Part shown: piece by piece, positions 2,943 through 61,013 of the stretch
Position numbering within the stretch: the first letter of the stretch is position 1
How the letters are laid out: each line of letters opens with the position of its first letter
Assembly: GCA_031549385.1 (NCBI GenBank)
Contig: JAVBPW010000006.1
Span: forward strand, 27,935-91,934
Reading direction: 5' to 3'
Length of the DNA: 64,000 nt
From: Alphaproteobacteria bacterium
Lineage (GTDB): Bacteria > Pseudomonadota > Alphaproteobacteria > Rs-D84 > SZUA-605
Notes under the pieces: model-generated
Told to the model about the DNA's origin: nothing
Seen by the model: only the letters and a program-made list of their open reading frames with translations
Database searches by the model: none
Translations under genes and position numbers: made by a program

Positions 2943-2970
2943 AAAAAAAGGAGGCTAAGCCTCCTTTTTT
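2943..2970. terminator. Bidirectional terminator; stop codon of the 2955 ORF lies at the hairpin loop
   Basis: AAAAAAAGGAGGC-TAA-GCCTCCTTTTTT. Confidence 0.85.
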
Positions 2971-3569
2971 AATGTGTACAAATCGTACCGGTCAACTTGC
3001 CCCGAATAAGGGAAACAAGTTAAATACCTCGGTGTTACCACAATTTCACGATAGGTACATGGAATTTTATCAAGAGTTAGGAATGATAAAAAACCTATAC
3101 CCTTTTCGCTTTCTATCATTGAACCTACCAGTTCTTTGATATATTTGCGACCAATTACCATTTCGCTTTCTCGGCCTTTGTAAAATTTTTCTCCGTCAGG
3201 CAATTTATCTTCAATAAATGAAAAAACACCATTCGTTTTTTCAAGCATTGTATAACTGTTTTCATTTAAGAAAACATAAGGTCCACGAAAAATACGAGAT
3301 GCTTCTTCAATGTTTGATAACCGGCTGACTTTGTTGCCTTTTATCATTACTATAGCTTCTTTGAGTGAGTACCAATCATGTAGAATGATTAAGTTTTTTT
3401 CTACATGATCTTGCTGATGAAGCTCAATTGTATGATACTCATCAGGAAGTAACTCTCCTTTGATAACCGCTGCACAGTTGCTTTTTCCTTGGAACACAAA
3501 ATTTGTATTGTTTAAGGAAAAATGAATCATCTTGTTAAGCGCTTGGGCTTGTTTTAAATTTGTTTTCAT
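2955..3569 (-). CDS. Hypothetical protein (AAACTTAA cassette gene)
   Basis: 204-aa ORF; TTGACT at 3628-3623; AAACTTAAA starts 20 nt before ATG; no SD. Confidence 0.75.
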   Translation of the reverse strand: MKTNLKQAQALNKMIHFSLNNTNFVFQGKSNCAAVIKGELLPDEYHTIELHQQDHVEKNLIILHDWYSLKEAIVMIKGNKVSRLSNIEEASRIFRGPYVFLNENSYTMLEKTNGVFSFIEDKLPDGEKFYKGRESEMVIGRKYIKELVGSMIESEKGIGFLSFLTLDKIPCTYREIVVTPRYLTCFPYSGQVDRYDLYTLKKEA

Positions 3570-3656
3570 TATGTTTATTATTTAAGTTTGAATATCGCTA
3601 TTTAACTATTTTAATCCCATTTAGTCAAGTTTTTTTTATTTTTATATTAGAATAAG

Positions 3657-3712
3657 TTGACAAAATTGAATATTGATTGTAAAGTACTCCCATAAACTTA
3701 AAAAATAGAAAT
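3657..3712 (+). promoter_or_regulatory. Cassette promoter and AAACTTAA leader
   Basis: TTGACA-17bp-TAAAGT; AAACTTAAA at 3694. Confidence 0.75.
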
Positions 3713-3889
3713 ATGAGTTTACATAGTGAGCAATTCGAAATGTATGAAAATTTCAAGAACGGGATTTTACCCGCTGAGGAATTTTACGATTATGTTGAAA
3801 AACATGGTCTTGTAAAGCAACTTCAAGCTCAATTAATTAGTGATTTTTGGGATATTTGGTCTGAAAAAACAAAAAAATATGATGATTGA
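3713..3889 (+). CDS. Small hypothetical protein, 58 aa (cassette gene, absent from ORF track)
   Basis: MSLHSEQFEMYENFKNGILPAEEFYDYVEKHGLVKQ...; own promoter, leader and terminator (3910-3933); similar to the repeats of the next ORF. Confidence 0.78.
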   Translation: MSLHSEQFEMYENFKNGILPAEEFYDYVEKHGLVKQLQAQLISDFWDIWSEKTKKYDD

Positions 3890-3941
3890 GTTGCTTTGAT
3901 AGCTAAATTGAGTGGTTAAAGCCCACTCTTTTTATTTTTTG

Positions 3942-4005
3942 TTGACAAAAATAATTTTGAGGATTATATTTTGAATAAATTCATTAATATTAAACTTAAA
4001 AAAAT
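3942..4005 (+). promoter_or_regulatory. Cassette promoter and AAACTTAA leader
   Basis: TTGACA-17bp-TATATT; AAACTTAAA at 3992. Confidence 0.78.
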
Positions 4006-4401
4006 ATGAATACTAAAAGAAATGCAAATGAAGAGCTTGAAATTCTTCAAGACTTTATAGATGGGATCATGGATCCCGACGAACTTTATCAGTATATTAT
4101 GCTGAACGGATTACATGTGTCTGTGCAATGGAGGGCTTTTGCGGAACTTTGCGTTCAAAAATTTAAAAGCAACCCGAAAGACTTTGAAAATATAAATTTC
4201 GATGATGCAGAAATTATTGCAAAAACTCTCGACGAAGAGCGAGATTTTTACAATGGTTTTGCTAAAGGTACAGTTAACCCGGAGGATTTGAAAACTTATA
4301 TATTAAAAATTGGGTTAGATCCGGAGGTGATTGTGGAACTTATTGCTGACCTCGAGGATCTTTTATATCCGGTCAAAATCCGAGAAGAGGATGACGAGTA
4401 A
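4006..4401 (+). CDS. Acidic hypothetical protein with two internal repeats (cassette gene)
   Basis: FIDGIMDPDELYQYIMLNGL and FAKGTVNPEDLKTYILKIGL; terminator 4423-4452. Confidence 0.8.
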   Translation: MNTKRNANEELEILQDFIDGIMDPDELYQYIMLNGLHVSVQWRAFAELCVQKFKSNPKDFENINFDDAEIIAKTLDEERDFYNGFAKGTVNPEDLKTYILKIGLDPEVIVELIADLEDLLYPVKIREEDDE

Positions 4402-4465
4402 GGCAAATTTGTGAAAAGGGTGAGAGTGGCTTGATAGGCCACTCTTTTTTTTATTTTCTTAAAGA

Positions 4466-4533
4466 TTGACAAATAGGATTATAAGCAGTAAATTTAAATG
4501 GTTATTTTATAATCAAACTTAAATAAATCCCTT
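4466..4533 (+). promoter_or_regulatory. Cassette promoter and AAACTTAA leader
   Basis: TTGACA-17bp-TAAATT; AAACTTAAA at 4515. Confidence 0.75.
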
Positions 4534-5073
4534 ATGAATCAAGAAAAAATTAATCCACTAGCTGGATGGAAAGCAACATTAGACAGTGCAGAAATAAATT
4601 TGCAAGAATCATTGCAGATTTTTGTTCAAGAAACAAATGATAGACTACCTCATTTGGTTGAAGAGTCTTTCTTTCGATTGAGTTACTTAACCGGTAACTT
4701 CAATCTGGTTGAACAATACTGTACATACGGTAAATTAGTCAGTAAAGACATTCACAAGCGAATGAAGCTTGAGCAGATTAAATACCTGCTTAAAGAAATG
4801 TTTAGACCGGAAGACGAATTATACCTTCACTATGGCGAAGGGTTCGGAGATGGTTTGGAAGAACTTGCTGAGGAAATGAGTGAATTTTATTCTGAAGAAT
4901 TTCAGGAATTTTTCCTTAAAGCATGTTGTTCTACTGAAAGGCGGGAAGCTATTACTACATTTTGTAGTAAGCTGTTTTTAAATGAAGCCTCTGTGATGCA
5001 GGAAATTAACCTGTATTACATCCGTAGAGAAAAAATGCAGATGGCTCTTTTTGGGCATACTGTGCAGAATTAA
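4534..5073 (+). CDS. Acidic hypothetical protein (cassette gene)
   Basis: 179-aa ORF; terminator ATAAGCGGC...GCCGCTTAT at 5091-5122. Confidence 0.78.
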   Translation: MNQEKINPLAGWKATLDSAEINLQESLQIFVQETNDRLPHLVEESFFRLSYLTGNFNLVEQYCTYGKLVSKDIHKRMKLEQIKYLLKEMFRPEDELYLHYGEGFGDGLEELAEEMSEFYSEEFQEFFLKACCSTERREAITTFCSKLFLNEASVMQEINLYYIRREKMQMALFGHTVQN

Positions 5074-5137
5074 TGTTGTTGGAAATTTTTATAAGCGGCT
5101 TTCAGGGGCCGCTTATTTTTTTATTTATAATATTATT

Positions 5138-18058: not shown

Positions 18059-18157
18059 ATTTTGCTCCTTATTTTAATAACTTCAATTCTACCTTAAATT
18101 GAATATTAAGTCAAATTAGGAAATAAAAAAGAGCCCTTTAAGGGCTCAAGTAAAAAA

Positions 18158-19492
18158 TCATTGTCCGAGTGAATTCATGTACTCGGCAATTTTGCGTTTG
18201 TCTTCCGGAGATATTTCGATACTTGTTTGCAAAGTATCGGTTATTTCCTTTAATGTTAACACTGAATGAAGTCTCACTCCTTCTTTTTCAAGAAGTTCAT
18301 CGGCACCTTGCTTGCGGTTGACCAAAACAACTACATCACATACATCGAGACCTAAATCGCGAAGTTTGTTGATCGTTGTCATGGTGCTGCCACCTGTGGT
18401 TGCTACATCTTCGAAAACAATAACCCTTTCTTTATCTTCGGGGTTGAAAGTTTCAACAGTTTGAGAACCTGTTACCCCGTGGTCTTTTGCTTCTTGACGT
18501 AATGTCAACAAAGGTTTTCCGGTTGATTGTGCAAGTCTTGCTGCAAAGCTTAACCCACCCATGGGAACACCGCACACGCGATCAAATCCACAAGTTTGTG
18601 CTACTTTGGTAATGTGGTAAATCGCATTGCCAAACAGCGTCGGGAATGACGGCATGTTACGAACATCAATGTAAATCGGCGAAAATGCTCCGGATTTCAG
18701 TTTGAAATTACCTACTTTGACTATTTCATGTTTGAATAATTCTTGTATGAATTTTTCTTTGATAGTCGGTACTTTCACCGGATTTGTCGATGTCTGTTTG
18801 ATTTCGTCCAAAATTTTCATCGCTGCTTCGGATGGAGCATAGTGACTGTGCGCGGTGATTGAGCGACCTATTACCATTGCTGAAGAACCCATGAGGATTG
18901 CTTCTGACGGTGTGGTTATTCGCTTTTGATCGCCAGGACTGTCCCAAACAGGTCGAATTCCCGGAGTAATCAATAACGCATCAGGTCCCATAATTTCACG
19001 GACGCCGGCAACTTCTTTCGGTGAACAAACTAACCCATCCATGTGACAATCCTTTGCCAACTGCGCCAAATGGTAAACCATTTGTTCGGGCGGGTAGATA
19101 AAACCGATTTCGGTCATATCCCCTTCACCGAGGCTGGTCAGTATTGATACTGCAATAATCTTAACATCCGGATTTACTGCTTTTCCTGCTTTGACAGCGG
19201 CTTTCATCATTTCCTGCCCGCCGGTTGCATGAACATTTATAATGTCTGCTCCTGCTTTGGCGGCGGCGGTTACCGCACCGGCTACTGTATTGGGAATATC
19301 GCTTTCTTTCACATCAACAAAGAGTTTGCAATCTTTTTTCCGTAACGCTCGGACCACTTGTGGTAATCCTTCGGAATTCAGAATTTCTTTGCCTACTTTG
19401 TAAATGCCAACACATTCAGATGTTTGTTCAACGAGTTCTACTGCTCGTCCTAAACTAGGCACGTCAAGTGCCACAATGATTTTGTTCTTCAT
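18158..19492 (-). CDS. pyrF: Fused OMP decarboxylase (N-terminal) and orotate phosphoribosyltransferase (C-terminal); cassette gene
   Basis: ALD, DVKESDIPNT, TPGIR, DQKR, GRSI; then FKLKSG..SPIYID and EDVATTGGS. Confidence 0.93.
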   Translation of the reverse strand: MKNKIIVALDVPSLGRAVELVEQTSECVGIYKVGKEILNSEGLPQVVRALRKKDCKLFVDVKESDIPNTVAGAVTAAAKAGADIINVHATGGQEMMKAAVKAGKAVNPDVKIIAVSILTSLGEGDMTEIGFIYPPEQMVYHLAQLAKDCHMDGLVCSPKEVAGVREIMGPDALLITPGIRPVWDSPGDQKRITTPSEAILMGSSAMVIGRSITAHSHYAPSEAAMKILDEIKQTSTNPVKVPTIKEKFIQELFKHEIVKVGNFKLKSGAFSPIYIDVRNMPSFPTLFGNAIYHITKVAQTCGFDRVCGVPMGGLSFAARLAQSTGKPLLTLRQEAKDHGVTGSQTVETFNPEDKERVIVFEDVATTGGSTMTTINKLRDLGLDVCDVVVLVNRKQGADELLEKEGVRLHSVLTLKEITDTLQTSIEISPEDKRKIAEYMNSLGQ

Positions 19493-19566
19493 TTTAATTT
19501 GATTTATTTAAGTTTGGATTTTTATTAAATTACGTTGATAGTATTTAATATTAAGTTAAAAGTCAA
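19493..19566 (-). promoter_or_regulatory. Cassette promoter and AAACTTAA leader
   Basis: TTGACT-17bp-TACTAT; AAACTTAAA at 19515-19507; no SD. Confidence 0.78.
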
Positions 19567-29742: not shown

Positions 29743-29758
29743 TAAAAAAACAGGAGTT

Positions 29759-30124: not shown

Positions 30125-30202
30125 ATATTGGATTTTTAAGTTTATTTTTGAATTTTTATTAGTCTATCTGATTTTTTGAAATTGTCAAAATAAAAAAGGG
30201 GG

Positions 30203-30364: not shown

Positions 30365-30438
30365 ATTTGTTTATTTGATTATTTATAGAGTTTTGATATT
30401 AACAACTTGATTATAATTGTCAATAAAAAATGTGCGGG

Positions 30439-30744: not shown

Positions 30745-30827
30745 TTTATTTAATTTTTAATAAAACATGAGTGTATTATAGGATATTTTTCTTTATTTGT
30801 CAAGCTTTTATAAAATAAAAACGGGGA

Positions 30828-35004: not shown

Positions 35005-35115
35005 AATTAAGCCCTTGAAAAAGGGCTTTTTATTTTCTAGGAATTCCTTCTTATTGATATAACTTTTTGATTGTTAATACTTAAAAACGTTTTTAAATAT
35101 TAAATAAATAATCAT

Positions 35116-35422
35116 ATGAAAGATAACTTATTAGAAAATCGGAAAGGCTTATAATGAAGCCAAAACTCAAAATGAACTGTTTCCTAAATTAGAGGAAATT
35201 TTGAAAAAGTTTTCTCTTGCAGAGGAATTTATCTTTTTTTCTTTCTGCAAAAGACTATGTCTTTGGGATGTAGCAAAGTTTTATGCTAAAAATTTTGGTT
35301 TTGAAAAAGAAGTTCAAGAAAAATTGGTTAATGAAATTACTATACTTGGACAAGAACTTGTCGCAATGGCTGATGAAAGCGATGAAACATTAAAACTTCT
35401 GAAAGATATTTCAGAAATGTAA
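35116..35422 (+). pseudogene. Frameshifted cassette-type hypothetical gene
   Basis: ATG at 35116 follows an A-rich SD-less leader and is one base out of frame with the 35201-35422 ORF; shift probably in GAAAATC at ~35134-35140; terminator 35429-35453. Confidence 0.55.
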
Positions 35423-35465
35423 AATTAGAAAGCGGCCATTAATTAGCCGCTTTCATTTATTTAGC

Positions 35466-40981: not shown

Positions 40982-41055
40982 TTGAAATGTTAATTTTAAG
41001 ATGTAGAATTATTTATACAAAACTTAAAAAATATAAACTTAAAAATTAAAAGACT
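40982..41055 (+). promoter_or_regulatory. Cassette promoter with a tandem pair of AAACTTAAAAA motifs
   Basis: TTGAAA-16-TAGAAT; motif at 41020 and 41035. Confidence 0.7.
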
Positions 41056-41238
41056 ATGTTAACAGCAAAAAGCTATATCGAAAGTGCTCAACTTCTTGAT
41101 CAAGTTGGTTGGGATGGATCTGGACACCAATTTGGTGCTGTAAATGATCGCCTTTATGGTGATATATATGTTAACCCCTCTTCACGCAATACATACACTG
41201 CGTTGGATGGGAGAAAAAGTAAAAAGAAAAAAAAGTAA
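41056..41238 (+). CDS. Small hypothetical protein, 60 aa (cassette gene)
   Basis: ATG 21 nt after the second motif; no SD. Confidence 0.65.
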   Translation: MLTAKSYIESAQLLDQVGWDGSGHQFGAVNDRLYGDIYVNPSSRNTYTALDGRKSKKKKK

Positions 41239-46611: not shown

Positions 46612-47309
46612 ATTTCGTTTTTTAACATAAGTTATTGTTTTTAGTTTTATTTATTGAACCATTGCGAATCTTTAATATTTTGATAGCTATCAAACCATTT
46701 TTGACCAAAATGCGAGTCGATATTGAAAATCAAAACTATTTTATTTTTTTCGAAAATTTAAGGAATTTAGTCAAGGGGAAATTGGTCAATGGATAATTTT
46801 AAAAAATTGTTAATAAAACAGTTTTAAATTGTTTTTTTTGATTTATAGTTCTTTTTAACGAAAGGGTTAGGAGAAAAGGAAATGCAAAAATAATAAGATT
46901 TATTGACAGATAACTTTAAGCTTTAAAAGTTCGTTTTACCTTAGAAAAAGTTTACAAGTTGTTTAAGTTATATTCTTAAAGCTGTCTGGAAATAAATCTT
47001 ATTATTGGCTTAAGGGGAGTTCTTATTAAGAAGATTTTAATATATAAAGAATTCTTAATTTAAAGCTCATAAAAAAGTTCTTAAAAGTATGTGTTTTCTT
47101 TTTTAAGGTTTAAAATGGTTGGTTGGATTTAATAAATATTTTAAAAACAATCTTCCGTTTTAAATAGTTTGAAATGAGAGGTGTTTTATCCATTAGGAAA
47201 TTTTATCTCTGATTTTAAACAAATTTTAATGGTAAAGATTTTGGGAAAGTCTTAACCAAATAGTTTGAAAAAACTATATTAGAATTTAAAACTTAAGAGG
47301 AGAGAGAAA

Positions 47310-48662
47310 ATGGGAAATATTTGGGAACAAGTTCAAGATCTTTTAAAAGCTCAATTGGGAAATAGTTCTTTTGCATCTTGGCTTTCACCTTTGAAATTTG
47401 AAAATTTCGAAAATGGTAACCTTTGCCTTTCTGCTCCTAATAGATTTATTGCTGATTTTTGTGCACAAAATTATAAAGATGAAATTCTTTCTTGCTTGAA
47501 TGCTAAATTTAACGATATTATTGATGTTAATTTTTCTGTGTGCGCTGTTATTAAAAATAATAACGAATCATGCCCTCTTCCTGAATTTAAACCACAAGAA
47601 AAAGTTGAAGAAAGCAAACAAGAAAATCCTTCTTGGTTCTTACAATCTGTTTTAAAAGAAGAATGGACTTTTGAAAATTTTGTTGTTGATGAAACTAATG
47701 AATTTGCTTATAAAGCTTGTATGAAAATTGCACAAAGCACAGACTTTGCTTATAATCCTGTATTCTTATATGCTGGAATTGGTTTGGGTAAAACTCATCT
47801 TTTACATGCTATTGCAAATTATATTGCTAAAAATGAACCTTGCCGAAAAGTTCTTTATATTTCTGCAAGACAATTTGCTAATACTTATGTTAAGTCTATT
47901 TATGAAAAAAATACTACTTACTTTAAAGAACAATTTTCTCAATATGACGTTTTACTTATTGATGATTTACAATTTCTTGATGGAAAAAAATCTACTCAAG
48001 ATGAATTCTTTGGAATTTTGTCAGAATTGACTTTTTTAGGCAAACAAGTTGTGCTTGCTGGAAATAGAAGTTTATCTTCCTTAACTCAATTCGACAAAAA
48101 ATTAAAATCTTGCATTATTTCTGGTCTTTCTTTAGACATTGCTAGACCTGGTTATGATGCAAGACTTAAAATACTTGAAGCTAAACAAAAATTATTCAAA
48201 TCATTTATTGAAGCTAAACACCTTGAACTTATTGCTCGTACTATTTCTTCTAATGTTCGTGAATTGGAAGGAGCTATGAGAAGAATCGTTGCTTATCAAG
48301 AACTAAGTGGCGCTTTAATCACTGAAGATGTTATTCAAAATGTTTTGAGAGATATGGTTACTCCAGATAATAAAGAAATCAACGCTGATGAAATTATTAA
48401 AAAAGTATGCAACTATTTTGATGTGGCGGTTTCTGATGTACTTGGAGCTAAACGAGAAAAGAAAATATGCTATTGCAGACAAATTGCTATGGCTATGGTA
48501 AAAGACCTTACAAAACACTCATTTCCTGAAATCGGTAAGAAGTTCGGAAACAAGGATCACACTAGCGTTATGTACTCTTGCCGCCAAATTGAAGCTAAAA
48601 AAGAGTATGAACCACGTATTACTACAGATATGGAAAATATAAAAGAAGCTTTAAATATCTGA
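47310..48662 (+). CDS. dnaA: Chromosomal replication initiator DnaA
   Basis: TFENFV, YNPVFLY.G.GLGKTHL, LLIDDLQF, NVRELEG, FG.KDHTSV. Confidence 0.94.
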   Translation: MGNIWEQVQDLLKAQLGNSSFASWLSPLKFENFENGNLCLSAPNRFIADFCAQNYKDEILSCLNAKFNDIIDVNFSVCAVIKNNNESCPLPEFKPQEKVEESKQENPSWFLQSVLKEEWTFENFVVDETNEFAYKACMKIAQSTDFAYNPVFLYAGIGLGKTHLLHAIANYIAKNEPCRKVLYISARQFANTYVKSIYEKNTTYFKEQFSQYDVLLIDDLQFLDGKKSTQDEFFGILSELTFLGKQVVLAGNRSLSSLTQFDKKLKSCIISGLSLDIARPGYDARLKILEAKQKLFKSFIEAKHLELIARTISSNVRELEGAMRRIVAYQELSGALITEDVIQNVLRDMVTPDNKEINADEIIKKVCNYFDVAVSDVLGAKREKKICYCRQIAMAMVKDLTKHSFPEIGKKFGNKDHTSVMYSCRQIEAKKEYEPRITTDMENIKEALNI

Positions 48663-48694: not shown

Positions 48695-48750
48695 TTGACA
48701 AATATTAAGTTTAGTACTATATTAATAGTATAAACTTAATAAATATATAT
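48695..48750 (+). promoter_or_regulatory. Cassette promoter and AAACTTAA leader
   Basis: TTGACA-17-TATATT; motif at 48732. Confidence 0.78.
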
Positions 48751-49020
48751 ATGAACTCACAACAAAACGGGACGCCTCAAGTTCTTATTGAGCTCCCACA
48801 AACGCCGACCTTTATGGTCAAAGATTTGAAAACCAATAAGACACTCGAAGTGTCTTACAGTATCAACGAACAACAATATGAAGAGCTTAGAGCTCTTGAT
48901 ATTACGTTAACAAAAGAAAACTTCATAAACCTCCCACGAGGCGTAAAGAAGTTTGTTAATGGAGTCAAGTTACTCCGTTGCAGTTGGGACTGTTACTTTT
49001 TGGAATTCAACGTTTGTTAA
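48751..49020 (+). CDS. Hypothetical protein (cassette gene)
   Basis: 89-aa ORF; terminator GGGGCC-TTTC-GGCCCC at 49028-49050. Confidence 0.75.
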   Translation: MNSQQNGTPQVLIELPQTPTFMVKDLKTNKTLEVSYSINEQQYEELRALDITLTKENFINLPRGVKKFVNGVKLLRCSWDCYFLEFNVC

Positions 49021-49048
49021 ACATTCAGGGGCCTTTCGGCCCCCTTTT

Positions 49049-51406
49049 TTATCTTAATTTTAAACCTTGTTTATCGGCGGTTTCTATTATCTTTTTACTT
49101 AATGTTTCCAAATCACTGTCAGTTAATGTTTTTTCAAATGGTTGAATCTTTACATTAATTGCTAATGACTTTGTTCCATCTTTCATATCATAATTATCAA
49201 ATACTGATACACCTGAAATTAATGTGTCCAATGATTTTACTTTTGAAATTAATTCAATGGACGCAAAATCAAATGGAGCTATGAAAGCAAAGTCTCTTTG
49301 AACTTCTTGGAATTGTGATAGTTTTAATTCTGGAAGTGCTGTTTGCTTCTTTTCCTTTATAGGCAATTTTTCTTGATTTATTTGAAAGAATACTACGTCA
49401 CCTTTTATATCAAATTTCTTTAATATAAATGGATGAATTTGACCAAAGGATGCTATTTCAATATTTCCTAACATAACTTTTGCAAATCTTTTTGGATGAG
49501 CGTATTTGCATGAACTGTCTTGGACTATTTTTACTTTTTGTGATAGACCAAAAGCATTTAATACAGAAAATAATTTTTCTTTTGCATCAAATACATCGTA
49601 ATTTTTTTCATTATGTTGCCAGCTTTTTTCATGATTTAAACCTGTTAAAATTCCGCATGTTACTGTTTCTTGTTCACCTGGGTTTGAACCCTCAAAAATT
49701 GGACCAGTCCTGAATAATGGTAAATTAAAATTACCTTTGTTTTGATTGTAATTTACTGACTTTAACAAATTAATCAAAAGTGTTTTTTGTAGAGTGTCAA
49801 ATGTGTCTACTATTGGGTTTTGAATTTCTACCATTTCATCTGTGAATAATTTTTGTATTTCTGAATGAACAAATGACCATGATAGTGTTTCATATAAACC
49901 TAATGAACATAGAGCTCTTTTGATTTTGATTTCTACTATTTGTTCTGTAGTCCATGTTGGACGCAAAATATTAGTTCTGTCCAATGGAGCTGGAGTTAAT
50001 TTATCATATCCATATATTCTTATTAATTCTTCTGTTATATCATAATGATAATTTAAATCTTGTCGAAAAGATGGAGGAGTAATTGTTAAATTATCACCCT
50101 TTTCTTTTACTTCACAGCCTAAATTTTGTAAAATTTTTACAGAAAGTTTTTTATCAATATCTATACCAATTAACTTTTTGAATTGTGATAAATTATAGTC
50201 TATTTTTCTTTCATCTTTTGGAAGTGTTCCTAATTCTTTTACTGATGAAATTTTACCACCACAATTTTCTTTAATTAATGATGCGGCCAATTTCAATCCT
50301 GGGAGAGCTGATAATGGATCTACCCCTCTTTCAAATCTGAACTTTGCATCTGATTCTATTTTTAATTCTCTTGCAGTTCTTCTTATTTCTGATGGAACTA
50401 AGGTTTCACAAATAAGCAAAATATTTTTTGTGTTTTCATCACAACCTGTTGCTTTGGCACCCATAATTCCACTTAATAGTTGAACACCATTTTCATCTGC
50501 TAATACACAATGAGTTTTTGATAGTATGTATTCTTTGTCGTCTAGACCAACAAACTTTTCACCTTCTTTTGCATAACGAATTGAAATTTTTCCTTTCAAT
50601 TTATCTGCATCAAATGCATGCATTGGACGGCATTGGTCTATGGTTTCATAATTTGTTATGTCTATTAAAAATGATTTTGGATTTATACCAATTGCTTTTA
50701 ATCTTGAAGTATATGGTTCTGGAGATACCTTGTTTTTAACATCTTTAATTTGAACACATACAAAGTATGGGCAAACTTCTTTTGCTTCGAGTTTAATATC
50801 TGTATCAAATTCAAAATCCTTTTTTAATTCTGGAGTTTTTAATAGAATGAACTCACCACAATCTGCTGCTGATAAATCACGTGCTATACCAATTACACTT
50901 AAATAATCTACACGATTTGGTGTTATTTCTCCATCAAATACTGCGTCTGATTTTAAATATTTTAATGCTGAGTCGCCATGCTTTGCTGATGATGGTAATT
51001 CTATGATACCTTCATGAGAATCTGAAATTAATAATTCTTTTTCAGAACATAACATACCTTCTGAGTCTACACCTCTTATCTTTGATGCTTTAAGTTTTTC
51101 TTTGTAAGCTGGGATTTCGTCACCTACTCTTGCTAATACTGATTTCAATCCAACTTTAACATTTGGAGCACCACATACTATATTATATGTATCTTTTCCT
51201 GCTTGAACTTTTAGCACATGCAACTTGTCTGCATTTGGATGATTTGAAACTTCTAATATTTCACCAACTATAAAATTCTTTACATTCTCTGATGCGTCGT
51301 TTAGGTCTTCAATTTCTAATCCTATTAGTGATAATTTATCCGCTAATTCTTTTGGACTTTTTTCTGTCTTTAAATAAGTCTTTAACCAATCATATGTGAA
51401 TTTCAT
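49049..51406 (-). CDS. pheT: Phenylalanyl-tRNA synthetase beta subunit
   Basis: HPNADKL, IVCGAPNV, ITPNR.D, RFERGVDP, RDFAF. Confidence 0.96.
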   Translation of the reverse strand: MKFTYDWLKTYLKTEKSPKELADKLSLIGLEIEDLNDASENVKNFIVGEILEVSNHPNADKLHVLKVQAGKDTYNIVCGAPNVKVGLKSVLARVGDEIPAYKEKLKASKIRGVDSEGMLCSEKELLISDSHEGIIELPSSAKHGDSALKYLKSDAVFDGEITPNRVDYLSVIGIARDLSAADCGEFILLKTPELKKDFEFDTDIKLEAKEVCPYFVCVQIKDVKNKVSPEPYTSRLKAIGINPKSFLIDITNYETIDQCRPMHAFDADKLKGKISIRYAKEGEKFVGLDDKEYILSKTHCVLADENGVQLLSGIMGAKATGCDENTKNILLICETLVPSEIRRTARELKIESDAKFRFERGVDPLSALPGLKLAASLIKENCGGKISSVKELGTLPKDERKIDYNLSQFKKLIGIDIDKKLSVKILQNLGCEVKEKGDNLTITPPSFRQDLNYHYDITEELIRIYGYDKLTPAPLDRTNILRPTWTTEQIVEIKIKRALCSLGLYETLSWSFVHSEIQKLFTDEMVEIQNPIVDTFDTLQKTLLINLLKSVNYNQNKGNFNLPLFRTGPIFEGSNPGEQETVTCGILTGLNHEKSWQHNEKNYDVFDAKEKLFSVLNAFGLSQKVKIVQDSSCKYAHPKRFAKVMLGNIEIASFGQIHPFILKKFDIKGDVVFFQINQEKLPIKEKKQTALPELKLSQFQEVQRDFAFIAPFDFASIELISKVKSLDTLISGVSVFDNYDMKDGTKSLAINVKIQPFEKTLTDSDLETLSKKIIETADKQGLKLR

Positions 51407-53224: not shown

Positions 53225-53296
53225 TTGACAAAAATACTTTTGAAAACTATAGTTGGCTTAATATCTAAAATTTCTAAACTTAAAAAATCAAAAAAT
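53225..53296 (+). promoter_or_regulatory. Cassette promoter and AAACTTAA leader
   Basis: TTGACA-17-TATAGT; motif at 53276. Confidence 0.78.
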
Positions 53297-53701
53297 ATGT
53301 ATTCTATTATCTCAAGATGTAGGAGAAAGCCTGAAGTAGTGGTTACCACTGTGAAAAACATAAAAGAACCACATCCTGCTTATAAAATTGAGCATGAAGT
53401 GGCTTATGAAGTAACAGGACGGGTTGAAAGAATAACTGAACCCATTGTTGCTGAATGCCCTGTTAAGAGAAAACAAATAATTTCATTCATCATCTTTTTA
53501 GAAGGTGGATATTCATTTGCTTTTTATTTTGAGGCTATTGATGACTATGGCTGTGGTAATGTTAGGCTTGTTAAGCCCGGTGATGTAATTTCCTTTGAAG
53601 TTTATTATTATAAAGACACCTTTAAAGTGAGAAGTTTTGAAAACAAAATGTGTTTTGCTAAAAATCGACATACTTTAGACAATAAAATTTATTATTACTG
53701 A
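53297..53701 (+). CDS. Hypothetical protein (cassette gene; start moved to MYSIIS)
   Basis: ATG 21 nt after the motif; the longer track start would run through the promoter. Confidence 0.72.
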   Translation: MYSIISRCRRKPEVVVTTVKNIKEPHPAYKIEHEVAYEVTGRVERITEPIVAECPVKRKQIISFIIFLEGGYSFAFYFEAIDDYGCGNVRLVKPGDVISFEVYYYKDTFKVRSFENKMCFAKNRHTLDNKIYYY

Positions 53702-53735
53702 TAGTATTAATCTTATAGTTAAAAAATTTAAAAAA

Positions 53736-54110
53736 ATGGCTAAATTTACTGAAAAGTATATTGGGGAAGTTATGGGGTTGAATGTTTTAGGTAAACAACT
53801 TTTAATTCTTGGTATCGTAGTTATCTTAATTATTGCTTTTTTGAGTATTAATATATCAAATGATAATAAACATAAAGAAGCAAAATTTAAAGCACAACTG
53901 GAACAGTCTGGAGATACTTTGGTTGTAAAAAAGGTTATTTACCCTGGGGGATTTAGAATAGTTGTGTTATTTGAAGATGACATAATTGGAGTTACTTGTC
54001 CCGATGAAAATGAACACCTTTTTAAAAATTCAAAAAGGATTATTCCTGGTAATAAACTTAATATTATCTTTACAGATAGTGTTAATTTTATAGTTAAAAA
54101 ACACCTATAA
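53736..54110 (+). CDS. Hypothetical single-TM protein (cassette-type leader)
   Basis: SD-less AAATTTAAAAAAATG leader; TM helix; terminator 54114-54136. Confidence 0.72.
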   Translation: MAKFTEKYIGEVMGLNVLGKQLLILGIVVILIIAFLSINISNDNKHKEAKFKAQLEQSGDTLVVKKVIYPGGFRIVVLFEDDIIGVTCPDENEHLFKNSKRIIPGNKLNIIFTDSVNFIVKKHL

Positions 54111-54134
54111 TTTGGGAGCTAATGCTCCCTTTTT

Positions 54135-54434
54135 TTATTTCTTTAATTTTGCATCATAGGTTACTGCTGATACATAGGAAAAGATTACATTTTGATCTTT
54201 GTCTAGTTCTACAAATGTTATGAATTCTGCATTGTTTATTACTTCAACAACTTCTTTATCAAAATATGTGAATACTATGTCTTGAGTTTCATCTCTGTAT
54301 AAGACGCCTATATCCTTTCTGTTGAAGGCAAATATTGGAGTTTGATATGGGTCGTTTGGAAAGTGTGGAAGAACAAATATTATCTCTTTATTCTTTCTTA
54401 TAATTACATCAAAAAATGGGATAATTATACGCAT
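54135..54434 (-). CDS. Hypothetical protein
   Basis: 99-aa ORF with AAGGT RBS-like sequence. Confidence 0.65.
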   Translation of the reverse strand: MRIIIPFFDVIIRKNKEIIFVLPHFPNDPYQTPIFAFNRKDIGVLYRDETQDIVFTYFDKEVVEVINNAEFITFVELDKDQNVIFSYVSAVTYDAKLKK

Positions 54435-56157: not shown

Positions 56158-56229
56158 TTGACAAAATCATTTGTATCAAGTAATTTGGGTTTAATAAATA
56201 TTAGTCAAACTTAAAAAAATCAATTAATT
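56158..56229 (+). promoter_or_regulatory. Cassette promoter and AAACTTAA leader
   Basis: TTGACA-17-TAATTT; motif at 56207. Confidence 0.75.
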
Positions 56230-57402
56230 ATGGATATAAAATATGAATGTAGAAATATGGATCATGTTGAATTCATGACCCTTGTCAATGAACATGCTAT
56301 CATTAGCTTTCAATCAAATAGAGGTGGTAATTTTGCTGTAGTAAATACTTGGGGTGCCTTTGTATTTTTCTATCAAAAAGATGTGTATTTGTTTGAAGGA
56401 GCAACTGGCGCTGAAGTTTTCAAAAATGGATGGTTTAAAATTAAAAAGAATGGTTATTGGAAACTTTTTGATAGACAACTACACAATATTGAAGATAAGG
56501 TTTTGGATGTTAAAGTTGATTCTGTTTTGAACCTTCGGGCAATTTTTGATGAAAACTTGGAAGGATGGATAATCCGAGATAAACATGGAGCATTGATAGA
56601 TAATGAAGTCTTCAAAGATGTTAAATTTGGAAATAACGGTCTTTATGCCGGTGAAGAAAAACGTAGTCCTGGATCTTGGAAAGTATTTGATAAAAATTAC
56701 CAAAAGTACAAAAGAATTTGTATTACTTCAGTTGATTTTTATCCGGATGCTATCGTTGTTTTAGGCATGCTTTCAAGGAACAATATGGGTAATTATACAA
56801 CCTATTTCGAAATGTACAAAAACGGTGTTTTATACCTTTCAACTGAAAGGCGCGCTATTGCGGCTAAGATATTTCAAAACGGACAAATCGGTTATAAAAC
56901 CGAAGAGAGTAATTATCTTTGGCATGTGTGTGAAATTGTTGAGTTGAAAGGAATCAAGACTGTTCAAGCCTGGGATATGGAAATTGATACCTATGGTAAT
57001 ATTCTTTATAAAAGAAATGACGACGGGGGTTGGATTCTGAATTCCGTTTATCATGGATTTGATAAAGTTGTTACTTTTGAAGATGGATTTTGTGGACTTA
57101 GAATTATAGGGGATTCTATATTACAATATCAAGAAAACAGAGCCCGTGTTTCTATTGATGGACTTCGACAAGTTGTGCCGGTTGGAAATCAAGCTTTTCT
57201 TCTTAGGATATTTGAATATTTGATGATGATTGATTTTAAAAGAGATTATCATGATTACAAGCATAGCTTTCTTTCCATTTCAAATAAAGTTACTAAAGGG
57301 CGAGCTGAAGATTTCACTTTGACATACGCTAGGTTTATTGAAAGATATGCCACGCGAACGTCTAATGACTTCAAAATGGAACTGGAGAAAATCCTAAAAT
57401 AG
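56230..57402 (+). CDS. Hypothetical beta-rich repeat protein (cassette gene)
   Basis: Repeated GxWxxFD-like units; no SD. Confidence 0.8.
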   Translation: MDIKYECRNMDHVEFMTLVNEHAIISFQSNRGGNFAVVNTWGAFVFFYQKDVYLFEGATGAEVFKNGWFKIKKNGYWKLFDRQLHNIEDKVLDVKVDSVLNLRAIFDENLEGWIIRDKHGALIDNEVFKDVKFGNNGLYAGEEKRSPGSWKVFDKNYQKYKRICITSVDFYPDAIVVLGMLSRNNMGNYTTYFEMYKNGVLYLSTERRAIAAKIFQNGQIGYKTEESNYLWHVCEIVELKGIKTVQAWDMEIDTYGNILYKRNDDGGWILNSVYHGFDKVVTFEDGFCGLRIIGDSILQYQENRARVSIDGLRQVVPVGNQAFLLRIFEYLMMIDFKRDYHDYKHSFLSISNKVTKGRAEDFTLTYARFIERYATRTSNDFKMELEKILK

Positions 57403-57626
57403 TATTGTCGCATAATCTTATAATCTCAAGCTTAGTCTTGAGATTATTTTTTTATACTGCAGATTTCCGAGGGTTTTTAAAACTATAATTTGATAGTTTT
57501 ATAATTATCAAATGGCGCATAATTCTGTTTTTATTTTCAGACAATAATAATTTTAGTTGCTATTTTGAATTTCATACGATATATGTAATAGCAATAAATA
57601 AAGTCAAACTTAATAATCAAATATAT

Positions 57627-58148
57627 ATGGGATATAAAATTAAATCCTCTCCTGTTAATAATCAGGTTTGGGCAAAAAAACTTAAGTATGGTTGGAAATT
57701 CTTTGGAGTTTACAACGATTGGCTGAAGCATAGGTATTTAACCGTTGACTTCTTTGATAATGGCTACATTCTTTTGAGCCGGTATATAAATAAAAAAGAA
57801 CGGGAAATTCGATATACCCTTTTGAACAAAGATTTCGATTTCTTAGCTGAAAGTCTTAGTCCTATTACAGTCAGCGGTGACTTTTGGGGGATTAAGCACT
57901 TTAAGAACTATGAATTGTATGCTCCTGATAAAATCCTTATTTCTTATAGCTATGATGATTTTGTTGGATTTACAAAACACTATGCTGTTCATCATGTTCA
58001 AAGGTTAGAAGAAGGGTATGTGGAAATGGTATGGATTTTCGAATATAAAGGCGGATATAGCGAACAACTTGCCGATGTTGCACCTTCAGACTTTAAGCCT
58101 GAGGAAAAGAAGTATTTCTTTGAAGATCAATGGCATGAGCTGATTTAA
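57627..58148 (+). CDS. Hypothetical beta-rich protein (cassette gene)
   Basis: AAACTTAA at 57606; YGWKFFG; terminator 58149-58170. Confidence 0.75.
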   Translation: MGYKIKSSPVNNQVWAKKLKYGWKFFGVYNDWLKHRYLTVDFFDNGYILLSRYINKKEREIRYTLLNKDFDFLAESLSPITVSGDFWGIKHFKNYELYAPDKILISYSYDDFVGFTKHYAVHHVQRLEEGYVEMVWIFEYKGGYSEQLADVAPSDFKPEEKKYFFEDQWHELI

Positions 58149-58168
58149 GTCCCTGAAAAGGGGCTTTT

Positions 58169-59128
58169 TTATTTTAATTTTACAAAAGTTATTGAGTTTT
58201 TGTTAAAGTCTATTTTTACACCTTGCAATGTCTTTGGTAATTTATTTTCTCTTATTGAAAATAACAAATTTTCTAATTTTTCTAATGTTGGTGGGTAATC
58301 TTGGTTAGATGTTTCCATGATAATATTTGAAAGGCTGCGTAAAATTACTTCATCATCTGCCTTTAAAAACAAATCTTTGTTAAATACATTCTTTTGAGTT
58401 TGAGAATCTGAAATATGATTTTGAACTAAATTTTCTATAAGACTTCTGACTCTTGATAAGTTTTGAATGGCCAATATAACTTTATCATCTGAAATGTCTA
58501 GCTTTTCATTCAATAAATGACGGTTCTTTCTGATTTTTACTCTTAGATATTTTTCATCGTCATTCATATTATCGTGATAGAATTTAATCCCCTGCTCTTT
58601 GCAAAAGTTTAAAATTTCTTCTTTTGAAAATGATAATAATGGGCGGATTAATGTTAATTCATCTTGAGTTGAAATTTCTTTTATTCCTGATAATCCATAT
58701 ACTCCTGAACCCCTTGATAAATTTATTAAAAATGTTTCTATTTGATCATCTTTATGATGTGCTGTTAACAAATATTCACATTTATTTTTTTTGCAAAAAT
58801 TCTTTATTAGGTCATACCTTGCTTGGCGTGCTTGGTTTTCTATATCGGATTTAATATCTTTATGCTCCCAGACTAAAACTTCATGATATATACCTTCGTT
58901 TGATAGAAAATCATGAACGCCTTTTGCTTCTTTTTTGGCTTCTGGGCGGAGTTGATGATCTACAGTTACTGCATATAAATTAATCTTTTTCTTTTTGCAA
59001 AAACCTTTTAGTAAAATGCAAAGTGCAAGAGAATCTGCACCTCCTGAAACGCCTATACAAAATGAAGTTGGGGTTTTAGGAAGCTTTGATAGTAAATTAT
59101 TTAATTTTTTTTCAAATCTATCTTTCAT
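58169..59128 (-). CDS. tilS: tRNA(Ile)-lysidine synthase
   Basis: VSGGADS, VDHQLR, ARQARY, AHHKDDQIET, RGSG, IRPLL. Confidence 0.95.
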   Translation of the reverse strand: MKDRFEKKLNNLLSKLPKTPTSFCIGVSGGADSLALCILLKGFCKKKKINLYAVTVDHQLRPEAKKEAKGVHDFLSNEGIYHEVLVWEHKDIKSDIENQARQARYDLIKNFCKKNKCEYLLTAHHKDDQIETFLINLSRGSGVYGLSGIKEISTQDELTLIRPLLSFSKEEILNFCKEQGIKFYHDNMNDDEKYLRVKIRKNRHLLNEKLDISDDKVILAIQNLSRVRSLIENLVQNHISDSQTQKNVFNKDLFLKADDEVILRSLSNIIMETSNQDYPPTLEKLENLLFSIRENKLPKTLQGVKIDFNKNSITFVKLK

Positions 59129-59546
59129 AAAGCTTTATTGTTTCAAATCTCTCTGATTTTGTTTTTTCTTCTGTTCTTGTTACTATTTTGCTTTCTTCAA
59201 TGCCTAAATTAATCATTTCTTGTCTTAATTTATATGTATCTTTTTCTATTTGATTTTGATTGTCTTTTGCATAGAAACCTATGATTAAAAAGAACTGATT
59301 TGGATAGCGTTGCAAACTTTGATTCAATGCATGATATAACCCCTGTCCGTAAATTGTCTTTTTATTATCATATGTTATTACATAAATTGGTCGACCATAA
59401 AAGTCCATTACTGGTGGCATTGGGTTCATTGTTTTTTCATCTGGAACTTTTACAGGATAGGAACTTACATCATGGAATAATATCCATGAAGCTGTGTCAC
59501 ACCCAAAAAGTGGTAAAAATAGACAAATGATTAGTATTTTTTTCAT
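59118..59546 (-). CDS. Lipoprotein with a possible degenerate OmpA-like domain
   Basis: LFGC lipobox; LQRYP..FLIIGF...LGIEESKI pattern. Confidence 0.55.
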   Translation of the reverse strand: MKKILIICLFLPLFGCDTASWILFHDVSSYPVKVPDEKTMNPMPPVMDFYGRPIYVITYDNKKTIYGQGLYHALNQSLQRYPNQFFLIIGFYAKDNQNQIEKDTYKLRQEMINLGIEESKIVTRTEEKTKSERFETIKLYER

Positions 59547-59623
59547 ATACTCAGATTATTTTATTTTTACTTGAAAATCAAGGAGAAATTTACTATAAAT
59601 GAGGGATATATAAAGGAAATACT

Positions 59624-60268
59624 ATGTGGAATTATATAAAAAAGATTGTTAAAGATAAGGGGCTTTTGAAAGAAGCTCTTACACATAGTAGTATGGTGAA
59701 AAATAATATCCATAGTAATGAACGTTTGGAATTCCTTGGAGATAGAGTTCTTGGTCTTGTTATTGCTGAAGAATTAATGAAAAAATATAAAAATGAAGCT
59801 GAAGGAGATTTAGCTAAACGTCATGCTGTCCTTGTGTCTTCTAAGAATTTAACTGCTATTGCTTATGAAATTGGACTTGATAAAGAATTAATATTTTCTA
59901 AGGCTGAAGTTACTACTATTGATTACTTATTAGCAGACTGCATGGAAGCTGTGTTTGGAGCTTTATATTTGGATGCTGGGTTTGAAGAAACTAAAAAAAT
60001 TATTTTGAAACTTTTTATCTCCTCTCTTAATGATATGAAGGAAGTGCCTATTGATATGAAGTCTAAACTTCAAGAAGTACTTCAAAAATCTGGGTATGAT
60101 TTGCCTGAATATTCTGTTGTTAAAAAAACTGGAACTGATCATAATCCTGAATTTCAAATAGAAGTTCAAACTGGACTTGGTATTGGACATGGTGTTGGAT
60201 CTACTAAAAAAGAGGCTGAACAAAAAGCAGCTCAATTCTTACTTACTAAGTTAAAAATCATTAAATAA
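59624..60268 (+). CDS. rnc: Ribonuclease III
   Basis: ALTHSS, NERLEFLGDRVLGL, KSKLQE, KKEAEQKAA. Confidence 0.96.
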   Translation: MWNYIKKIVKDKGLLKEALTHSSMVKNNIHSNERLEFLGDRVLGLVIAEELMKKYKNEAEGDLAKRHAVLVSSKNLTAIAYEIGLDKELIFSKAEVTTIDYLLADCMEAVFGALYLDAGFEETKKIILKLFISSLNDMKEVPIDMKSKLQEVLQKSGYDLPEYSVVKKTGTDHNPEFQIEVQTGLGIGHGVGSTKKEAEQKAAQFLLTKLKIIK

Positions 60269-60277
60269 TTAATTTTG

Positions 60278-60344
60278 TTGACAAATTTAGGTTTGAGTAC
60301 TATCTTTTGACAGTATTTTAAAATCAAACTTAAATAATTTTATA
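60278..60344 (+). promoter_or_regulatory. Cassette promoter and AAACTTAA leader
   Basis: TTGACA-17-TATCTT; motif at 60326. Confidence 0.78.
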
Positions 60345-61013
60345 ATGGAATTTAATAAACTGAAAGAACAAGTTCAGGTCTTGTTTGAAGTAAACAAAAA
60401 CCCTGTTGTAAGCTGCAAGGCTGAAAATGGATCGTGGGCAATAGGCGTTTTGCCGGAAGAATGGAATCTTTCAAAAGATTCACAGTATAATTTTGCTCGG
60501 TTTTTTGTCTCTTACAGAGGTAAAAAGGTTCAAAAAATTGATTGCCGAAATGTATATTTCGAAGATGATGGTTTCGTGTGCCAAAAAATGGTCGCCGGAA
60601 AAAGTATTTGGGAAAAAAATGGGAATGTTCCTATTGATTATTTCCCAAAATTTGCATCAAAAACTCCTCCAGAAATTTTGGAAATTAATGACGAGTACCA
60701 AGCTCGTCTTAAAGGTACAAAAGTTTATTTTCTGTACAAATATGAGGAACAAGCTGGCATAGAATTTGCTAGTGATTTTTTTGTTTTGGAAGAAGATGTT
60801 TTTATGTTTCGAAATGTGACAGAATTTGTTTTCATAATTGATCTTGATTCTACTTACGGCGATTACCGTGAGATTTTGGCAGAAATGGCCGAAACCGTTG
60901 AAGGAGATAGAATGAGATTGTATCTGCTATATTTTGTGGAGATAATTAACATTATTCACCAAATGCCGAAAAAAAGCCTCAAGCAAGAGGTTTATTATTT
61001 AATGAGTAATTAA
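60345..61013 (+). CDS. Hypothetical protein (cassette gene; C-terminus similar to the 56230 protein)
   Basis: IIDLDSTYGDYREIL; terminator 61046-61075. Confidence 0.78.
   Translation: MEFNKLKEQVQVLFEVNKNPVVSCKAENGSWAIGVLPEEWNLSKDSQYNFARFFVSYRGKKVQKIDCRNVYFEDDGFVCQKMVAGKSIWEKNGNVPIDYFPKFASKTPPEILEINDEYQARLKGTKVYFLYKYEEQAGIEFASDFFVLEEDVFMFRNVTEFVFIIDLDSTYGDYREILAEMAETVEGDRMRLYLLYFVEIINIIHQMPKKSLKQEVYYLMSN

Follow-up and report, generated by a model that had tools for sequence, protein, structure and literature searches.

A shared leader box without a Shine-Dalgarno site ties dispersed, moron-like single-gene units in a reduced alphaproteobacterial genome

The gene cassettes described here belong to an alphaproteobacterial genome, G000 (assembly of 931,143 bp in 8 contigs, ~30% G+C, completeness 97%, contamination 0.19%), and came to attention in the window, i.e., the whole stretch of 64,000 nucleotides that was analysed, G000:C5:27935-91934. 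An original prediction, made from the letters of the window, held that about 19 genes there stand apart as a second population, expressed by a grammar of its own, and the class does separate genome-wide by its promoter, by a box (AAACTTAA) in a leader that has no Shine-Dalgarno (SD) site, and by its terminator, codons, isoelectric point (pI) and lack of homologues. The finding is confirmed as real, non-random and wider than the window: the exact box stands before no fewer than 56 genes and the full composite pattern (TTGACW-N28-45-AAACYTA-N5-17-ATG) before ~43, and 18 members, including a broken one, lie in the window. The box genes are a distinct, real and compositionally foreign population of single-gene units. 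They are moron-like units outside any phage, tied together by an SD-less leader box that drifts between genera, and how that box would act is something we infer from its surroundings.

The case for the box begins with its numbers. In the window AAACTTAA occurs 27 times against 11.93±3.51 expected, a count that 0 of 100 shuffles reached, and across the genome 69 of its 217 copies (32%) lie 3-20 nt upstream of an ATG that opens at least 50 codons; by the same measure 12 control 8-mers of like composition gave 2-13%, and AAGGAG gave 36%. Nearly half of the copies (98/217) fall in the ~15% of G000 that was classed as intergenic. Among 927 genes (850 from a hexamer model plus 77 open reading frames, ORFs, in the gaps), 56 have the exact box 3-20 nt before their ATG, whereas ten decoy 8-mers scored over the same 931 kb gave 2-5; the starts of box genes were placed at the box-coupled ATG, a choice that favours the box class. 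Gene, SD and terminator calls were all made with simple scripts of our own. The motif is therefore far from a background rate upstream of genes, and when the 7-mers of the 30 nt upstream of 1347 ORF starts were counted without regard to the motif, AACTTAA came up 66 times where 6.4 were expected, directly behind the SD words in rank. The window, 6.9% of G000, has 13 of the 56 exact-box genes.

The placement of the box is as constrained as its frequency. Its consensus in G000 is (T/C)AAACTTAA(A)(A/T)A, with G nearly absent around it, its orientation is always the sense strand relative to the gene, and its end lies 10-13 nt 5' of the ATG in 34 of the 56 genes. The distance from the -35 hexamer to the box is 48-51 nt in 19 of 38 cases and 34-37 nt in 8 of 38, two classes that differ by ~12 nt, about one helical turn, and the box-to-ATG spacing is maintained across both; the stretch between -35 and box is conserved in length and not in sequence. 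The box also precedes ORFs that follow a terminator or another ORF and have no recognisable promoter (C5:5828 and C1:18941, and, with a variant box, 53736 of the window), and in two genes, dnaA and C4:91884, it lies directly upstream of an SD site.

Pairing of the box with 16S rRNA was considered and dropped, as the 16S rRNA contains no full complement: there is no 8/8 site, two sites match at 7/8, and none reaches 10/12 for the extended box. The 3' end of this 16S rRNA is canonical (CACCTCCTT). A sponge or small RNA with anti-box copies was likewise discarded, no such locus having been found among the 42 intergenic boxes outside called-gene leaders, several of which are leaders of ORFs below the length of the gene caller. 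A full-text literature search for AAACTTAA returned only primers or barcodes, none relevant, among the matches listed. As a separate observation, a sense copy of the box lies inside the 16S rRNA gene itself (L001, G000:C6), at about position 880 of the gene (AAAACTTAAAGGAATTGACGG), a region that we take to read AAACTCAAA in other bacteria, and a further copy stands 15 nt 5' of the 16S rRNA start.

What makes the box genes a population, rather than a list of motif matches, is how many features travel with the box. By our SD criterion (four or more nt of purine-rich, AGGAG-like sequence located 4-17 nt 5' of the start codon), 2 of the 56 box genes and 541 of the 871 others have a site, in keeping with the earlier claim that the flanking housekeeping genes are SD-led. 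TTGAC(A/T) within 110 nt upstream was found at 38/56 box genes vs 6-15% in the other classes, and a terminator-like hairpin within 90 nt at 38/56 vs 16-28%. The leaders (-30 to -1) are 2.9% G against 12-19%, and the mean folding energy of -30..+18 is -0.74 kcal/mol against -2.4 to -3.1. The products are short (median 146 aa vs 218-290 aa) and acidic (median pI 6.1 vs 8.0-8.5), with hydrophobic segments scarcer than in the other classes. The predicted excess of C/G-ending codons was seen as well: G+C at third codon positions (GC3) is 0.29 vs 0.165-0.19, and the shift runs toward G-/C-ending, rare codons (CCG 0.20 vs 0.02-0.04, AGG 0.19 vs 0.01-0.05, CGG 0.10 vs 0.00). A gene model trained on native genes missed 21 of the 56. 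TGA stops close 11 of 56 box genes vs 22 of 468.

Could these simply be native genes of high expression, their codons shifted by translational selection? Strong consensus promoters, a raised GC3 in some small conserved genes and the coverage of several cassettes by RNA contigs would suit such an account, but it is extremely improbable. The 43 most conserved genes, which serve as an expression proxy, show no shift (GC3 0.158), nor do 142 non-conserved SD-led genes, whose codons are native; the shift favours codons whose cognate tRNA is absent or rare, e.g., CGG; and only 2 of the 56 box genes have a tblastn match in the same-family genome G001 (663 kb compared, 84% complete), vs 48-60% in the other classes. 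CGG is the extreme case, with 33 of 9,041 codons in box genes (spread over 21 of the 56) against 11 of 164,500 in conserved genes, a ~55-fold difference, and among the 37 tRNA genes found by ARAGORN there are tRNA-Arg with ACG, CCT and TCT anticodons and none with CCG. For this lineage CGG may thus be a nearly unassigned codon; one study describes its disappearance from an AT-rich Mycoplasma (PMC4695839).

Two odd tRNA-like genes were met in the same survey. One, at G000:C2:66723-66796 on the minus strand, is a 74-nt tRNA with a CUA anticodon that ARAGORN labels Pyl; it adjoins the second, and both lie between two high-GC3 genes. Read-through of TAG by way of the CUA tRNA-like gene was rejected as an idea, since long in-frame extensions after TAG are no commoner than after TAA and are located at gene boundaries.

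The members in the window, together with dnaA, which the earlier list had left out and which also carries the box (ahead of a GAGGAG SD, start 47310), are as follows.

2955..3628, minus strand: cassette with -35 TTGACT at 3628..3623, box AAACTTAA at 3589..3582 (12 nt from the ATG) and ORF 3569..2955 (204 aa; no Pfam family, GC3 0.30, 2 CGG codons).
3657..3937, plus strand: cassette with -35 TTGACA at 3657..3662, box at 3694..3701, ORF 3713..3889 (58 aa, weakly paralogous to ORF 4006..4401) and terminator-like hairpin at 3909..3937.
3942..4454, plus strand: cassette with -35 at 3942..3947, box at 3992..3999, ORF 4006..4401 (131 aa, acidic) and terminator-like hairpin at 4422..4454.
4466..5125, plus strand: cassette with -35 at 4466..4471, box at 4515..4522, ORF 4534..5073 (179 aa) and terminator-like hairpin at 5090..5125.
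18122..19566, minus strand: pyrF-pyrE fusion in cassette format, with -35 TTGACT at 19566..19561, -10 TACTAT, box at 19515..19508, ORF 19492..18158 (444 aa, pyrF before pyrE; Pfam OMPdecase and Pribosyltran; GC3 0.37) and terminator-like hairpin at 18148..18122.
29750..30188, minus strand: cassette of the four-gene paralogue set, with -35 at 30188..30183, box at 30143..30136, ORF 30124..29759 (121 aa) and terminator-like hairpin at 29771..29750.
30198..30423, minus strand: cassette without box, with -35 at 30423..30418, ORF 30364..30203 (53 aa) and terminator-like hairpin at 30213..30198.
30431..30803, minus strand: cassette without exact box, with a 12/12 consensus promoter from 30803, ORF 30744..30439 (101 aa) and terminator-like hairpin at 30452..30431.
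30821..31393, minus strand: cassette of the paralogue set, with -35 at 31393..31388, variant box AAACCTAA at 31356..31349, ORF 31337..30828 (169 aa) and terminator-like hairpin at 30838..30821.
31406..31913, minus strand: cassette of the paralogue set, with -35 at 31913..31908, box at 31879..31872 (at the predicted transcript start), ORF 31861..31418 (147 aa) and terminator-like hairpin at 31432..31406.
31915..32513, minus strand: cassette of the paralogue set, with -35 at 32513..32508, variant box AAATCTAA at 32479..32472, ORF 32459..31968 (163 aa) and terminator-like hairpin at 31944..31915.
35054..35460, plus strand: broken cassette, read by eye, with a -35-like TTGATA at 35054..35059, ATG at 35116 and hairpin at 35431..35451.
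40982..41238, plus strand: small cassette with TTGAAA-16-TAGAAT at 40982..41009, two boxes at 41020..41027 and 41035..41042, and ORF 41056..41238 (60 aa).
47289..48662, plus strand: dnaA, with the box at 47289..47296 immediately 5' of its SD; native codon usage, GC3 0.17.
48695..49052, plus strand: cassette with -35 at 48695..48700, box at 48732..48739 (at the predicted transcript start), ORF 48751..49020 (89 aa, GC3 0.44) and terminator-like hairpin at 49027..49052.
53225..54138, plus strand: two-gene unit with -35 at 53225..53230, box at 53276..53283, ORF 53297..53701 (134 aa), ORF 53736..54110 (124 aa, variant AAATTTAA at 53724..53731, no promoter of its own) and terminator-like hairpin at 54113..54138.
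56158..57455, plus strand: cassette with -35 at 56158..56163, box at 56207..56214, ORF 56230..57402 (390 aa) and terminator-like hairpin at 57420..57455.
57606..58174, plus strand: cassette without a consensus -35, with box at 57606..57613, ORF 57627..58148 (173 aa) and terminator-like hairpin at 58147..58174.
60278..61077, plus strand: cassette with -35 at 60278..60283, box at 60326..60333, ORF 60345..61013 (222 aa) and terminator-like hairpin at 61046..61077.

Reading all 19 starts bore out the count of boxes given earlier: 13 of them (3569, 3713, 4006, 4534, 19492, 30124, 31861, 41056, 48751, 53297, 56230, 57627 and 60345) have the exact AAACTTAA, 6-15 nt upstream of the ATG, and variants stand at 31337 and 32459. 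The remaining four (30364, 30744, 35116 and 53736) have no exact box, one-mismatch forms being present only at 53736 and at 30744 (AAAATTAA). The claim of one design for all 19 is sound as an overall pattern and too broad in detail, in that TTGAC(A/T) is absent at 41056, 53736 and 57627, and the ORF at 35116 meets a stop after 12 codons, its frame resuming in +1 up to a stop at 35420..35422; either this copy is frameshifted or the assembly has an error in a run of A. As to terminators, a strict hairpin scan found terminator-like structures for 11 of 18, and a tool scan recovered the hairpins of five minus-strand genes that the strict scan had missed. In 29500-32700 the tool scan counted 16 terminator-like sites (2.2±1.3 in shuffles) and 19 promoter-like sites (11.5±3.8 in shuffles), with a TTGACA promoter and a hairpin with T-run at 5 of the 6 minus-strand cassettes. 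In the 3' hairpins a short stem rich in G+C leads into a run of T, the layout of an intrinsic terminator.

The neighbours of the box genes are TypA, PyrG, Lon, RNase E/G, PheT, DnaA and other genes conserved in G001. Upstream of dnaA is a 700-bp gap (46611-47310) with an 88%-complementary inverted repeat, 46889-46920 / 46975-47006, which may be the replication origin region. Also in the window, at 19582-27074 on the minus strand, are four tandem paralogous genes (598, 674, 586 and 619 aa) with no NCBIfam family and with internal repeats of 102 nt (34 aa) and 48-51 nt; these have SD sites, a GC3 of 0.08-0.15 and a relative in G001 at 27-30% identity.

The products of the cassettes are for the most part orphans, much as the original prediction had said of all but pyrF-pyrE: with the 12-codon ORF excluded, 17 of the 18 cassette ORFs of the earlier list have no Pfam family above cut-off, the exception being that fusion. 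Pfam was run on 32 box ORFs (25 of the 56 box genes lie outside the scan), of which four matched a family, namely pyrF-pyrE, KDO8P synthase (kdsA), dCTP deaminase (dcd) and DnaA. The 390-aa protein of ORF 56230 matched only itself in 5.8 billion clustered proteins and has a weak WG-repeat likeness (ESM Atlas score 0.90, with which a sub-threshold Pfam match agrees), and the 222-aa protein of ORF 60345 matched only itself among 1.84 billion representatives.

Orphan units with their own signals recall the morons of phage genomes, which are described as independent units with their own promoter and terminator, a deviating composition and the look of evident additions when related genomes are compared (PMC3594210). 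The cassettes share with them the single gene, the promoter and terminator (38/56 each) and a GC3 and CGG content unlike those of their neighbours. They differ in sitting between bacterial housekeeping genes outside any prophage, in making up ~6% of all G000 genes, and in a common SD-less leader box that is not in the moron concept. The likeness to that description invites the reading, which the original prediction had offered in a similar form, that the cassettes are leftovers of phage or mobile DNA (morons, early genes) scattered by prophage decay, and the small acidic orphan products and a box gene for dCTP deaminase, an enzyme common in phages too, would agree with it. A phage origin was nonetheless not borne out and is very improbable: of 10 window ORFs compared with PHROGs, none matched at E<=0.001 and one did at E=0.004; the best phage dcd matches are 33-38% identical to the box-gene product; at least 116 viral stretches match the cassette pattern, with a single match each among those listed; the flanks are housekeeping genes conserved in G001; and no phage structural gene was seen, although no family-by-family screen of the genome was made. 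Metagenome stretches match the pattern as well (at least 118, again with one match each among those listed), and both sets of stretches say little on carriers.

Part of the growth of the class was local. BLAST among the box proteins found few paralogues, nearly all of them neighbours, and adjacent cassettes encode paralogues at 21-36% identity in which the box is kept. In 29759-32459, four of the six genes can be aligned, at 21-26% identity and with a common EIFxI(M/L)TG motif, and all four have the box or a one- or two-base variant of it. Local duplication of whole cassettes in tandem, after which the ORFs diverged fast while the signals were kept, therefore expanded the class in part. AlphaFold2 on the four-paralogue alignment gave a mean predicted local distance difference test score of 52.

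The PheT of G000 has its closest records in an Alphaproteobacteria bacterium (48%), uncultured Azospirillaceae (40-41%) and a Rickettsiales bacterium (35%), genomes of 0.5-1.1 Mb are the rule across all sampled genomes of the order, and the sequencing runs that contain window DNA are all labelled invertebrate gut metagenome. The original prediction had asked whether relatives carry these genes in synteny; G001 lacks them and has an empty site at the lon locus. The genes that flank the six-gene cluster are ~108 bp apart in G001 and 2.9 kb apart in G000, the gap that holds the 60-aa ORF 41056 is 423 bp in G000 and 184 bp in G001, and elsewhere the box genes sit singly between conserved genes. 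In the examined part of G002, a genome of another family of the same order (315,573 bp, one-third of that genome), 1 of the 56 box genes has a match vs 170 of the 871 others.

The signal, rather than the genes, is what G002 was shown to share: this other family has cassettes of like design, in which the box has drifted and the ORFs are unrelated. The composite pattern occurs 43 times in G000 (control 2), 27 times in G002 (control 1) and at most 5 times in each of 79 other genomes of the order, and a stricter pattern has 27 occurrences in G000 and no more than 3 in any of 300 other genomes of the class. Of the 138 AAACCTA sites in G002, 39 precede an ATG-started ORF of at least 40 codons, in the same promoter/terminator context and with the consensus TTTAAACCTA, and these ORFs are unrelated to the box ORFs of G000 and to one another. 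The -35-to-box distance in G002 is 46-53 nt in 20 of 30 cases, with a second class at 33-38 nt, and the box-to-ATG distance is broad (5-16 nt). G001 makes no use of AAACTTAA (3/20) and has a weaker enrichment of AAACCTA/AACCTAT (13 observed vs 1.3-1.7 expected). Between genera the box drifts, in the forms AAACTTAA, TTTAAACCTA and AAACCTATTA.

A module that stands before unrelated ORFs in two families is also what one would expect if single genes were captured by a system not yet described (a capture/dispersal system was one option of the original prediction) and the box were its attachment site or the scar that it leaves. Foreign ORF-terminator units would be set behind a standard promoter-leader module and dispersed among the housekeeping genes. 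Single insertions between conserved genes, the empty site in G001, the variable box-ATG spacing and the occurrence of enzymes (pyrF-pyrE, dcd, kdsA) in the same format are in its favour, and so is a repeat family, D17, that unites three promoters of the window with 79-82% likeness across 38 nt; a fourth D17 copy (74%) is not a cassette, and the similarity may be chance in AT-rich DNA. Integron cassettes offer the nearest known parallel, with many small, mostly orphan ORFs of deviating composition and a short conserved sequence just before each ORF, but the cassettes here have their own promoters and ordinary terminator hairpins, and they are dispersed with no array. No integron integrase or attI was found, the four PF00589 matches of the genome being XerC, XerD and two divergent tyrosine recombinases, all on contigs other than C5, and the rve, DDE_Tnp_1 and RVT_1 families have no match in the genome. 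The -35-to-box sequence, as noted, is conserved in length only. Neither by eye at the lon locus nor in the repeat scan were there flanking direct repeats or target duplications. A capture/dispersal system of this kind was accordingly not demonstrated, and we regard it as improbable.

A separate region, G000:C2:104000-120000, may be an integrated element: nearly all of its genes lack a match in G001, and among them are three box genes and the genes for a HipA-like protein and for one of the divergent tyrosine recombinases (352 aa).

Two enzyme genes were compared across relatives. The full-length pyrF-pyrE fusion is found in 1 of 81 genomes of the order, G000, and its homologues elsewhere, about two dozen proteins of 444-464 aa at 52-58% identity, include one named carrier, Candidatus Peribacteria (58%). 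For kdsA, 8 of 10 copies in relatives are SD-led, while the G000 copy is cassette-type with a GC3 of 0.37. G002 has a tandem kdsA pair (L294/L295, G002:C1:63366-65135), sisters in the tree, of which one is SD-led and the other cassette-type; upstream of the latter are a terminator, then a promoter with TTGACT and a leader that resembles AAAACTTAA and has no SD. Both have native GC3. The kdsA tree, which has no outgroup, is incongruent with the family labels and does not discriminate between vertical descent and transfer for G000.

That the class is transcribed was shown by metatranscriptome contigs from one run, 18192-19531, 30843-31340, 31522-31837 and 31936-32457, each of which lies inside one cassette, coverage in the DNA run being even. 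Such assembled contigs give neither true 5' ends nor levels, and the parts that they leave uncovered were not used as evidence. The pyrF-pyrE contig stops at the point expected for a sigma-70 start, 7 nt downstream of the TACTAT -10, and this gene is not leaderless because the contig reaches 39 nt 5' of its ATG. Two other contigs end 3 nt before and 2 nt inside an ATG, and contig ends are not transcript ends; the use of contig ends as start sites was abandoned, since only the pyrF-pyrE end fits the predicted start and the others are uninterpretable.

The reading that we favour, and to which we would give an even chance, is that the cassettes are moron-like accessory units whose G-poor, unstructured leader box serves as a common signal for SD-independent expression. 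A near-consensus sigma-70 promoter (TTGACA, 16-17 nt, TAnnnT) starts each unit; its leader of 20-35 nt is A-rich, almost free of G, unstructured and without an SD, with the box (T/C)AAAC(T/C)TAA(A) ending ~11 nt 5' of the ATG; and a short ORF, mostly without homologues and encoding an acidic, soluble protein, follows, closed by an intrinsic terminator. The genes would have been drawn from, or shaped by, a lineage-restricted gene pool. On the mRNA, the box may support S1-type, SD-independent recruitment of ribosomes to an open A/U-rich leader, and it might also be a handle for joint regulation. A role at the RNA level is suggested because the box is always in sense orientation, keeps its spacing to the ATG and precedes promoterless ORFs, SD sites are absent, the leaders are open and G-free, and S1 is present, G000 encoding a six-domain S1 protein; a search of the assembly (97% complete) found no Hfq, CsrA or ProQ.

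The precedent for such a signal is the enhancer in the leader of T7 gene 10, with the core UUAACUUUA, which the box, through its AACUU, presumably resembles. Both are short A/U-rich leader elements upstream of the start, and in dnaA and C4:91884 the box lies directly before an SD, as the enhancer does in the T7 leader. The unlikeness is that 54 of the 56 box genes have no SD to enhance, and that any enhancer activity of the box is putative. According to one source, the T7 element acts via S1 and not by rRNA pairing, which is neither needed in T7 nor available to the box, and expression in an alphaproteobacterium did not depend on it (PMC8748333).

Several observations weigh against this favoured reading. 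An SD of at least 4 nt is absent also from 330 of the 871 other genes, and SD-less initiation therefore needs no special box; four window cassettes exist without the exact box, and the 16S rRNA has no complement of it. The spacing in G002 is tight from promoter to box and broad from box to ATG, and the two promoter-to-box classes of G000, ~12 nt apart, also fit a DNA site on one face of the helix. The effect of the box on translation is put forward from sequence features, and the putative foreign origin is read from composition, no donor having been identified. The paralogue families imply that the genes either have been resident for long or diverged very fast, hard to square with codons that have not been ameliorated, and the cassette-type kdsA of G002, with its native GC3, means that the design can attach to native genes. 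The RNA evidence, lastly, comes from the contigs of only one study.

Some of these points lead to a regulon, also named in the original prediction and a possible, if unlikely, rival, in which the box is a DNA operator bound by a lineage-specific factor or silencer at the start site or one helical turn on, perhaps in front of host-interaction proteins. The motif does sit at a fixed position relative to the promoter in both genomes, in distance classes ~12 bp apart and with a spacing at least as tight as that between box and ATG, and the loose box-to-ATG spacing in G002 and the drift of the box, which resembles the co-evolution of a regulator with its sites, would be in order for an operator; the VirB4-type secretion ATPase encoded by G000 fits a host-interaction regulon. 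The PmrA boxes of Legionella and Coxiella effector genes, where regulons are marked by one promoter-proximal box, show what such a system looks like: the bacterium is host-associated and has a type IV secretion ATPase, and a single short motif near the promoter is common to dozens of genes that evolve fast and are specific to the lineage. Here, unlike there, the box is in the transcribed leader and is coupled to SD loss. A single asymmetric 8-mer in strict sense orientation, found also before ORFs with no recognisable promoter, is not what an operator predicts, and a regulon leaves the systematic absence of SD sites and the G-free, unstructured leaders unexplained. No candidate regulator was found; the 40 proteins common to G000 and the examined part of G002 that lack a match in G001 are a raw list, from which no candidate factor was drawn.

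A bolder version of our own reading takes the box as the handle of an orthogonal expression channel, i.e., of self-contained cassettes that circulate in several lineages of the order and are recognised by a dedicated factor, be it a protein or a ribosome state other than the anti-SD one. Such a system, which would both capture and express genes, would be neither an integron nor a prophage. Foreign-looking genes, even those with poorly read codons, would then be switched and translated apart from the SD-led core. We hold this to be fairly doubtful.

What the cassettes do suggest, with dozens of orphan units behind one leader, is a separate expression route for foreign-looking accessory genes. 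If the box is a working substitute for the SD, or a common switch, then two initiation grammars, one for the core and one for accessory genes, would operate in one cell, which bears on gene gain and expression in reduced symbiont genomes and the control of their orphan genes, and on how far leader sequence other than the SD can steer bacterial ribosomes. The use of CGG, for which no cognate tRNA gene was found, poses a decoding question in reduced genomes, and the box leader is a short, portable candidate expression part. For this uncultured, gut-associated lineage, the class is also a list of ~60-100 candidate host-interaction proteins.

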